Shown one piece after another: positions 18,320 through 18,880 of a stretch of DNA of 64,000 nucleotides. Below the pieces are notes generated by a model. The model saw only the letters and a list, made by a program, of their open reading frames with translations. It ran no database searches and had not been told where the DNA came from. How positions within the stretch are numbered: position 1 is the first letter of the stretch; every line of letters starts with the position of its first letter. The translations under genes were made by a program, and so were the position numbers. Source of the stretch: an uncultured Chloroflexia bacterium (lineage in GTDB: Bacteria; Chloroflexota; UBA6077; JACCZL01); NCBI GenBank assembly GCA_963765765.1, contig CAVXYC010000023.1, positions 419,927-483,926 on the forward strand. Reading direction: 5' to 3'.

Positions 18320-18880
18320 TTGCAGCAATGCCAGAGTGCCGCTCAGGTGGGGAGGGACATGAGGGTGATGGACATGGCTATCTGGCATGAAGAACATGGC
18401 GGATCTATGGGAGACATGGTGAAAAGCTTGTCGCAGTTGAATAAGGCTGAAGTGTTCGTGGCGCTCGCGTATTACTGGGAATATAGTGAAGAGCTTGAAG
18501 TCAAGGAAGACACAGGCGAAGCTAAGGACAGAGAGATAAAGTTTGGGCTTATGGAGATGTTAACTTTTAGATCACTTGGCTGAAGTCAGATTTCAACTCG
18601 AAGAGCATATTGATTCAGCAATAGAGTCAGGGTTGATCAGTCGGGGATTCAGGCTGAGACAACAGCGGCTCTGGGTCTCTGCGGGGACAGAGAAGAGACA
18701 CAATTGGAGGCAGCTTTTGAAGGAGGTAGAGTGGTAGTCACTTTAGATTTAGATTTACACCACTTGCATCACGCGGGAGCGCAGCATATCGGAATTGTTT
18801 AACTGCCTCGACCTAACCGCAGGATCGGGCGAGTCATTGAGTGTCTGCTGATGATTTGCAGCTATGCCAGAGTGCCGCTC
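18320..18880 (+). pseudogene. Truncated, cytosine-depleted DUF433 + DUF5615 (PIN-like) toxin-antitoxin fragment between 25-bp direct repeats
   Basis: MRVMDMAIWH...QLNKAEVFVALAYYWE (DUF433-like), then VRFQLEEHID...GRVVVTLDLDL..HAGAQHIGIV (DUF5615-like); repeats TTGCAGCWATGCCAGAGTGCCGCTC at 18320-18344 and 18856-18880. Confidence 0.75.

Follow-up and report, generated by a model that had tools for sequence, protein, structure and literature searches.

A 64,000-nt stretch of the genome of an uncultured Chloroflexia bacterium (the window; assembly GCA_963765765.1, contig CAVXYC010000023.1, positions 419,927 to 483,926) carries a fragment of a DUF433-DUF5615 toxin-antitoxin operon inserted between two 25-nt direct repeats, and most of this insert is depleted of cytosine on one strand. 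Judged against homologous sequences, about half of the plus-strand C in the leftmost 415 nt of the insert (18345-18759, the tract) appears to have been replaced by A, then T, then G in order of frequency, with G, A and T left alone. We consider it probable that the captured fragment underwent strand-coordinated hypermutation, before or during its capture, by a single copying of a strand very dense in lesions or modifications of one base in one dinucleotide context, and that the sequenced lineage stems from this copy. We take the source of the insert to be a foreign or paralogous DUF433-DUF5615 toxin-antitoxin operon. The coordinates of the features are collected in Table 1.

A cytosine-depleted tract without parallel in the genome

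An initial annotation, made from the letters of the window, had counted about 60 C in 410 nt with G still abundant, and the exact count over 18351-18760 is 60 C and 132 G (A 120, T 98; CC 0, GG 41). It had also described a stretch free of CC with CC returning in the last ~100 bp, and the dinucleotide is indeed found at 18339, next at 18760, and then at 18806, 18812 and 18817. The CC-free run (18340-18760, 421 nt) is the longest run free of CC or GG in the window, where the next longest is 113 nt. The genome-wide scan for such windows that the annotation had proposed finds this run to be the longest in the whole genome as well (33 contigs, 6,493,169 bases).

The runner-up among CC-free or GG-free stretches (contig C18:72301-72666) consists of a GAT/GAC (ATC/GTC) trinucleotide repeat, pure over ~330 nt, whose minus strand would encode a long run of Asp; being a trinucleotide repeat, it was set aside as a second tract. 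A region of another contig (C9:7300-8600) was set aside as an ordinary AT-rich, foreign-looking gene in which CC is still present. This low-GC island (~7310-8572, ~43% G+C in a 61% G+C genome) is C-poor on the plus strand, contains a 421-codon open frame on the minus strand and looks like horizontally acquired DNA. In no other 300-nt window of the genome is low C accompanied by normal G and by raised A and T, and no other pair of direct repeats flanking a skewed segment was found genome-wide.

The depletion is seen at every codon position. The frequency of C at first, second and third positions is 0.14/0.13/0.17 in the fragment and 0.23-0.28/0.24-0.30/0.31-0.50 in four host genes, and that of G is 0.43/0.20/0.32 in the fragment and 0.33-0.43/0.19-0.22/0.34-0.38 in the same genes. 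Thus C is about halved at all three positions, G is host-like, and A and T are raised. The translation of the tract contains no proline and shows D>E, I>M and F>L at family-consensus positions, all of which the initial annotation had pointed out. The idea that the many GGA trinucleotides form a CsrA sponge was dropped, as a hand count of GGA gave the compositional expectation.

Comparison with homologous segments

A tblastn search with the DUF433 piece yielded 80 metagenome loci (E as low as 5e-14) from 600 candidate stretches scanned; the best are 31-48% identical, and closer relatives are possible. Seventy-six of these loci extend for at least 300 nt from the homologous start, and in these the 415-nt segment was compared. 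The 76 segments contain 6-44 CC (mean 24.7) and have GC skews between -0.11 and 0.21, against 0-1 CC and a GC skew of 0.36 in the fragment over the same span. The 8 homologues with a G+C content of 30-42% have a minimum of 6 CC and a maximum of 104 G. The initial annotation had called for a comparison of its composition with that of intact homologues, and none of the 76 comes near the fragment.

To compare individual sites, codons were threaded on the protein alignments and columns were used in which at least 60% of homologues share a base. At these consensus columns the tract retains A at 29/38, G at 53/63, T at 30/38 and C at 21/49, and the changed C have become A (n = 16), T (n = 9) and G (n = 3). 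The difference in retention between C and the other bases (21/49 versus 112/139) is significant (Fisher p = 2e-6). These counts agree with the earlier proposal that C was lost to all three other bases, G, A and T being kept as they are among homologues. In a leave-one-out analysis of 45 homologues, C-minus-G retention has a mean of -0.09 (sd 0.08, minimum -0.28), and the fragment lies at -0.41. Compared with 52 GC-rich homologues, the composition of the tract is shifted by A +35, T +21, G +9 and C -65, a spectrum that matches the consensus-column proportions by an independent route. Chance does not explain the depletion, given the Fisher test and the absence of any segment with fewer than 6 CC (0/76).

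One AT-rich metagenome contig (L097) carries an intact DUF433-DUF5615 pair and, ~460 nt downstream of it, a repetitive coiled-coil gene on the minus strand (L097:2529-3191) that contains a long GG-free run.

Sequence context of the missing cytosines

Dinucleotide counts were used to ask which C are missing. CA and CT per 415 nt hardly vary over the GC classes of the homologues (23-28 and 21-22, respectively), and the fragment has 27 and 21. Its 136 G and 44 GG fit only the homologue class with 60-70% G+C, whose means are 128 C, 30 CC and 51 CG. The loss of C (from 128 to 59) equals the combined loss of CC and CG, so the lost C are those that precede C or G, comprising essentially all C before C and about four fifths of C before G. 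The 5′ neighbor has little effect (AC 18, TC 19 and GC 22, against 26, 28 and 41 in homologues). Viewed on the minus strand, the loss is of G with G or C on its 5′ side. Two sites, 18407-8 and 18441-2, show a change of CC to AT.

When consensus C are sorted by the next base of the fragment, 17/29 are retained before A or T and 4/20 before G or C (p = 0.009); the context effect is strong in the dinucleotide counts and only moderate in this column test. Two other models, the removal of whole C runs with lone C spared and an APOBEC3G-like loss of the 3′ C of CC, were rejected because a loss of C before C or G accounts better for the dinucleotide counts. The initial annotation had described a loss directed at C on one strand: its strand specificity stands, and its target has to be narrowed from C in general to C before C or G.

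Extent and timing of the tract

The left edge of the tract lies within 8-9 nt of the left junction, the first changed consensus C being at 18353, 18356 and 18362, and the tract covers ~80% of the length of the insert, ending ~96 nt before the right junction. A change point in C density lies at ~18758 (log-likelihood gain 4.1), after which the insert ends in 96 nt of balanced composition (C 26%, G 28%, 4 CC). The repeat copy that adjoins the tract keeps all 8 of its C, including 3 that precede C or G, and we estimate that three such sites exposed to the hit rate of the tract would all be spared ~0.3% of the time. As the tract is confined to the insert and the flanking repeat is spared, the hypermutation would predate or accompany the insertion. 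Decay in situ was rejected because it would have eroded the repeats too, and these are 24/25 identical. With ancestral states taken from the homologue consensus and one relative, the changes form a strand-coordinated cluster, affecting one base on one strand in a bounded tract beside a junction.

The nearest relative and the search for a source

The nearest relative found is a 479-nt contig (depth 6.6) from a soil run, X1, which matches 18363-18480 with 82% identity and 21 differences. Of the 14 differences listed among these, 8 have C in the relative and G (4), A (2) or T (2) in the fragment, and the reverse occurs once (sign test p = 0.04, a small sample). The relative reads TTC CCG and ACC, encoding the F-P and T of the family consensus, where the fragment reads TTG TCG (L-S) and AAT (N). 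This comparison polarizes these changes and indicates that the fragment carries the derived state.

The DNA of the insert was absent from 39 genomes of the order, apart from one weak 48-nt match in one genome that carries no claim, and in 400 genomes sampled from the phylum it gave only two short matches at chance level. No match was obtained by blastn in plasmids and phages or by pattern scans of genome contigs and viral contigs, one protein word search and a DNA search of the organism's own genome returned only the insert itself, and a second protein word search gave no match. None of the public runs contains more than 0.17 of the sampled words of the locus; in four of them no contig was recovered over 18206-18358 or 18512-18868, and none spans the insert. 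Contigs of a rhizosphere run, X3, match the downstream DUF5655 gene (18993-19399) with 2-3 differences per 85-148 nt, so a close relative of the organism occurs in that sample type.

Gene content of the insert

The insert is a fragment in which both genes are truncated and is not a functional pair. The DUF433 piece begins at the family motif G-x-R-I-R-V, with ~25-45 N-terminal residues missing. A phmmer search of 1.84 billion representative proteins found 34 relatives at E<=1e-3 (best 1.8e-7 at 43% identity), with identity never above 44%. PF04255 is present in 6/6 of the relatives tested (2e-12 to 1.2e-20), and 8/9 nearly invariant DUF433 columns are retained in the fragment. The Pfam DUF433 model gave no match at E<=1 in an hmmscan of the 102-aa frame, and a genome-wide search with PF04255 matched 3 other loci and not that of the insert; the fragment receives no score because the N-terminal half of the 56-position model is missing from it.

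The two genes follow in the order DUF433-DUF5615 with overlapping stop and start, the frame opened by the TTG at 18576 overlapping the DUF433 stop as it does in intact pairs. Among the metagenome loci, an open frame of suitable size follows downstream in 52/80, and in 45 of these 52 it aligns as DUF5615. The DUF5615 part of the insert shows 34-39/91 identities to many DUF5615 proteins and contains one frameshift only, which may be real or an assembly indel. PF18480 (DUF5615) scores 26.4 bits against a cut-off of 23.8 at 18635-18844 when the frame is read through one TAA, and 16.7 bits (E 0.0069) with one frame piece alone. The in-frame TAA that ends the middle part replaces a Y/F of the family. 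Homology to DUF5615 extends to ~18853, with ~17 C-terminal family residues absent. The phmmer, PF18480 and alignment results bear out the original description of a DUF433-DUF5615 fragment cut at both ends. The genome has three further pairs of these genes, two intact and one partial, none of them similar to the insert in DNA.

Insertion site and neighboring genes

The insert lies in the spacer between a thiamine pyrophosphate (TPP)-enzyme gene and a DUF5655 gene. Its flanking repeats agree at 24/25 bases and exist in just two copies genome-wide, allowing up to 5 mismatches; the repeat pair with one mismatch reported in the initial annotation is real, and the position given there for the second copy was off by one base. 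Microhomology at the junctions does not exceed 1 nt at either end. A transposable or integrative element was rejected as the identity of the insert, which is single copy, has no terminal inverted repeats at its ends and consists of two truncated genes; its sole element-like trait is the 25-nt direct repeat, which resembles a target duplication or an att core. When the site is compared, relatives from the organism's family share just the TPP gene, up to its stop.

Beside the insertion site, the spacer carries duplications of its own. A 13-nt string that includes the stop codon of the TPP gene (CAGCTAGTTGCGA) is present twice, at 18197 and 18268, 71 nt apart, each time with a GC-rich hairpin repeated on its 3′ side (best copy 18283-18315), and a third partial unit is found at 18239-18263. 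The spacer has undergone local duplication more than once. A simple scan of 18197-18319 found no terminator-like or promoter-like site, and Rfam has no match within 17500-19800.

Two AlkZ-like glycosylase genes sit 1-3 kb downstream of the insert. AlkZ-like glycosylases unhook alkyl-guanine crosslinks, and no link of these two genes to the tract could be shown.

Several genes around the site appear frameshifted. The TPP-enzyme gene (16561-18203) has two frame breaks, near 16832-16905 and near 17407; the DUF5655 gene has an extra base at ~19094-19096 that is absent from the contigs of close relatives (runs X1 and X3); and the first AlkZ-like gene has a frame break near 20796-20816. These amount to 4 frameshifts in 4.6 kb, against ~10 in 34 kb genome-wide (~3x, Poisson p = 0.05). 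The notion that the cluster records error-prone repair synthesis was dropped, the excess being only ~3x the genome's own rate, and the frameshifts are treated as assembly noise. Those in the TPP, DUF5655 and AlkZ-like genes are probably indel noise of the assembly rather than local decay, and the frameshift inside the insert is perhaps of the same kind.

Table 1. Features of the insert and its surroundings (positions in the window).
Feature	Position	Strand	Remarks
Intergenic tail of TPP-enzyme gene	18197-18319	.	local tandem duplications beside the insertion site
Direct repeat, copy 1	18320-18344	+	25 nt; host-like composition (8 C, 2 CC)
Insert	18345-18855	+	511 nt; DUF433-DUF5615 operon fragment, truncated at both ends
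C-depleted tract	18345-18759	+	A 121, C 59, G 136, T 99; CC 0, CG 11, CA 27, CT 21, GG 44
DUF433 antitoxin-like gene, C-terminal two thirds	18350-18583	+	stop TGA 18581-18583
DUF5615 (PIN-like toxin) gene, N-terminal part	18576-18646	+	TTG start; frame of 18582
One-base gap in reading frame (-1 frameshift)	18645-18647	+	inside CGGGGATT
DUF5615, middle part, other frame	18647-18802	+	ends at in-frame TAA 18800-18802
Last 96 nt of insert	18760-18855	+	still DUF5615-homologous (N-R-R-I-G-R-V-I-E-C-L-L-M)
Direct repeat, copy 2	18856-18880	+	25 nt; 8th base T (A in copy 1)
DUF5655-family gene, downstream	18901-19588	+	Pfam PF18899, 2.7e-8
AlkZ-like DNA glycosylase genes, tandem pair	19975-21094 and 21127-22245		PF06224, 1.3e-32 and 3.2e-82

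Possible origins of the proposed hypermutation

In sequence alone, lesions of plus-strand C and lesions of minus-strand G would look alike. The version of the hypermutation that we favor, tentatively and as a possibility short of a likelihood, combines guanine lesions on the minus strand, capture by end joining, resection and lesion segregation. The lesions would lie on guanines in 5′-GG and 5′-CG of the minus strand. An exogenous damaged fragment would have been joined into a staggered chromosomal break by end joining, and the filling of this break would have given the 25-nt duplication. Resection in the 5′ to 3′ direction would have stripped the damaged minus strand at its 5′ end only, which corresponds to the right 96 nt of the insert. 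When the remaining lesions were first replicated over, A, T or G would have entered the new plus strand in place of C, and the sequenced lineage would descend from this copied strand. Composition, context, tract boundaries, homology, direct repeats and the difference from homologues are observed; the parts that we infer are the GC-rich source, the choice of damaged strand, the nature of the lesion, the end joining and the resection.

This guanine-lesion version is favored because GpG and CpG contexts are reported for mitomycin C, because acetaldehyde is reported to give strand-biased G>T on single-stranded DNA together with GG>TT, and because 5′ to 3′ resection would clean the minus strand at the right end, where the unmutated 96 nt lie. 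Mitomycin C is reported to cause substitutions at CpG and tandem changes at GpG, among them G:C>T:A, G:C>C:G, G:C>A:T, GG>TT and GG>AT (PMC5219776), and the strand-biased G>T and the GG>TT of acetaldehyde are described in PMC9303387. Short damaged DNA can be taken up and integrated by a soil bacterium, Acinetobacter baylyi (PMC4255686). The host genome encodes Ku (contig C7:64532-65071, 149 bits), so end-joining capture of a linear fragment at a break is possible.

Two further versions share in the probability of the hypermutation, and either one taken singly appears rather unlikely. One places the lesions on cytosines of the plus strand while it was single-stranded, the minus strand being copied over them. 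Exposure of the plus strand could have come about in a heteroduplex of recombination or transformation, where it formed an unpaired heterologous loop, or following a template switch, where it was the nascent strand; candidate lesions are 3-methylcytosine from SN2 methylating agents, oxidized C and sulfite adducts. Such an origin accords with the restriction of the changes to the partnerless insert, with the flanking repeat spared, and with the dominance of C>A and C>T. Delaney and Essigmann reportedly found in 2004 that 3-methylcytosine leads to C>T and C>A in alkB E. coli and that 1-methyladenine is barely mutagenic. To our knowledge, the formation of 3-methylcytosine has no dependence on a 3′ G or C, yet a dependence on the 3′ neighbor is seen in the tract. 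The loop model predicts that the whole insert is mutated, but the right 96 nt are normal, and 5′ to 3′ resection would clean the plus strand at the left end, where the tract begins. In ALKBH2-deficient cells treated with methyl methanesulfonate, C>A increases greatly and C>T to some extent (PMC3874200), the same pair of changes as here, and the 92%-complete genome yielded no match to the AlkB family (PF13532; the control matched 3/14 genomes). Strand-coordinated mutagenesis of C in single-stranded DNA is established in yeast (PMC3799438, PMC3521656), where oxidative stress on such DNA is described as giving mainly C>T and not C>A (PMC3799438).

The other version invokes a context-specific DNA-modifying enzyme that is processive on one strand of incoming or single-stranded DNA, in effect a bacterial equivalent of APOBEC3G restriction. 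It could be a cytosine deaminase combined with uracil excision and error-prone bypass, a guanine ADP-ribosyltransferase or a glycosylase. The near-saturating action and sharp context (CC 0 of ~30, CG 11 of ~51, CA and CT untouched) resemble an enzyme more than chemistry, and the effect is limited to non-host DNA. Known enzymes include APOBEC3G, an editor of CC on retroviral minus-strand DNA; DarT1, which attaches ADP-ribose to guanosine in single-stranded DNA; and bacterial deaminase toxins, which mutagenize DNA. Deamination alone, however, gives C>T, whereas here C>A is the commonest change and C>G is present; and the deaminases known to us read the 5′ neighbor, whereas here it is the 3′ neighbor that matters most. 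Hypermutation by an APOBEC-like or DddA-like cytosine deaminase was rejected on these two grounds, in line with the initial annotation, which had already held that simple deamination does not account for the pattern. DarT (PF14487) and DddA-like (PF14428) genes were not found in the genome, which is a weak negative as the controls were silent for both, and no candidate gene adjoins the insert, its neighbors being the TPP enzyme, the DUF5655 gene and the two AlkZ-like glycosylases.

The initial annotation had offered abasic-site bypass or an error-prone polymerase or reverse transcriptase as mechanisms for mutagenesis of C on one strand of a captured fragment. These mechanisms fare less well than the pattern that they were meant to explain: no reverse transcriptase was found in the 92%-complete genome, and the tract has a single one-base deletion, where bypass of abasic sites of the E. 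coli type gives many (PMC4167244).

A broader proposal, which we regard as improbable, is that bacteria of this kind have a pathway that marks one strand of incoming or unpaired foreign DNA to saturation at C with a 3′ C or G (equivalently, at G after G or C on the other strand) and that the marked DNA is then copied with random bases. Such a pathway would combine an APOBEC-like mutagenic restriction with the one-base-to-any-base outcome of diversity-generating retroelements (DGRs), and the insert would be its first fossil.

Weighing the proposed hypermutation against other explanations

Two explanations dispense with mutagenesis altogether, and we hold each of them to be very unlikely. The fragment could be unchanged from a source whose coding strand was naturally G-rich, C-poor and proline-poor. 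No source sequence was found, so that the ancestral state is inferred; a natural GG-free coding run of 495 nt does occur in an AT-rich contig; and the 57-nt core of the nearest relative has by hand count the same G+C content as the fragment. Such a source would nevertheless have to differ from all 76 homologous segments, none of which approaches the fragment, the 8 with 30-42% G+C included. At the very places where the fragment reads AT and GTC, the X1 relative reads CC and CCC, with the consensus residues preserved that the fragment has lost. The halving of C at all codon positions beside a host-like G is likewise unexpected for a natural composition, and single C changes suffice to explain I>M at 1/9 of the near-invariant DUF433 positions and the loss of the strongly conserved proline of the F-P motif. 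The tract could alternatively be an artefact of systematic miscalls or of a poorly covered stretch in an error-prone long-read assembly, the insert being either real DNA with an ordinary composition or absent altogether. The genome is 91.8% complete and 6.9% contaminated, ~10 of ~80 ABC_tran domains are split genome-wide, and frameshifts occur near the site (two in the TPP gene, one in the DUF5655 gene and one in an AlkZ-like gene). We know of no error mode, however, that would strip one strand of C before C or G over a tract starting at an insertion junction and leave the reading frames of an operon intact, as would be required for a pattern of one base, one context and one strand over exactly 415 nt. 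The operon structure, the 34-39/91 DUF5615 identities and the presence of only one frameshift do not suggest a read segment of low quality, and a chimera formed by ligation would lack a 25-nt duplication of host sequence with one mismatch.

Several observations weigh against hypermutation of a captured fragment or against its guanine-lesion version. Although the signal is strong statistically and its anatomy coherent, there is one instance only, in an indel-prone draft assembly. No ancestor sequence was found, and the polarity of the changes rests on the consensus of relatives that are 31-48% identical and on 14 differences to one contig that is 82% identical. The natural 495-nt GG-free run in the AT-rich coiled-coil gene (L097:2668-3162) means that a long CC-free run by itself is no proof of mutagenesis. 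When consensus C are sorted by the next base of the homologues, retention is 10/17 against 11/32 (p = 0.13), and consensus C without a neighboring C are kept at 8/15, against a control mean of 0.77. The lesion density needed, ~70 in 415 nt, is extreme for chemical damage to DNA that is still replicated. Mitomycin-type agents act on duplex DNA and hit both strands at CpG, so the asymmetry needs lesion segregation or single-strand uptake, and the excess of G>A over G>C differs from the reported mitomycin spectrum. A target duplication of 25 nt is unusually long for end joining. The predicted excess of G>N in the right 96 nt is undetectable, G being kept at 7/10 there and at 53/63 in the tract, with too few sites.

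Relation to known mutational systems

The insert resembles the products of APOBEC3G hypermutation in that foreign DNA was affected on one strand, at C in CC and near saturation, leaving a dead genomic copy. It departs from them in that C>A is the commonest change, CG is also lost and the 3′ neighbor is informative, whereas APOBEC3G produces only C>T and reads the 5′ neighbor. With DGRs it shares the conversion of about half of one base to any of the other three, the other bases remaining faithful. A DGR acts on adenine with the help of a reverse transcriptase and a template repeat, and the gene that it diversifies is functional; the insert, by contrast, is changed at C, has no second copy of its sequence and is a truncated pseudogene. 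A search of the 92%-complete genome for an RVT_1 reverse transcriptase (PF00078) gave 0 matches (the control matched 3/14 genomes). A DGR was rejected on the missing RVT_1 match, the missing template copy and the changes at C and not at A, and the initial annotation had excluded it as well.

In affecting one base on one strand over a short tract by a rearrangement junction, the changes are like the strand-coordinated clusters and lesion segregation known from yeast and kataegis. Bypass of lesions in such clusters can give all three substitutions (PMC3799438, PMC3521656, PMC6786661). The clusters of yeast and tumors contain one change per hundreds of bases and involve TC or any C, whereas the insert is near saturation (~70 changes in 415 nt), involves C before C or G and lies in a bacterial chromosome. 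In the excerpts returned by literature searches, we found no natural case of kataegis or mutation clusters in a bacterial genome and no case of integrated damaged DNA with a tract of this kind.

The signature of mitomycin C and related guanine-N2 agents (PMC5219776) is matched in the loss of minus-strand G in CpG and GpG only and in the two CC>AT changes. That signature is sparse and falls on both strands, in contrast to the saturating changes on one strand of the insert, in which G>A (32%) outranks G>C (11%). Finally, the capture of exogenous or damaged DNA has its parallel in a random gene fragment that is cut inside genes at both ends and lies at an intergenic site in a host with Ku; the 25-nt target duplication and the saturating one-strand tract are not described for such capture in the excerpted text of PMC4255686.

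Implications

If the reading is correct, the insert is a natural record, in a bacterial chromosome, of single-strand, context-specific hypermutation acting on captured DNA. Events of this kind have so far been documented in retroviruses, yeast models and tumors. It would follow that a soil bacterium can integrate and replicate DNA even when this has been very heavily damaged or edited. The insert would also provide a searchable signature, in which one strand lacks C before C or G and the depleted stretch stays within an insert and reaches just one of its junctions. A search for this signature could tell whether bacteria gain variation by taking up environmental DNA that carries chemical damage or whether an enzymatic defense mutates the DNA that enters them.

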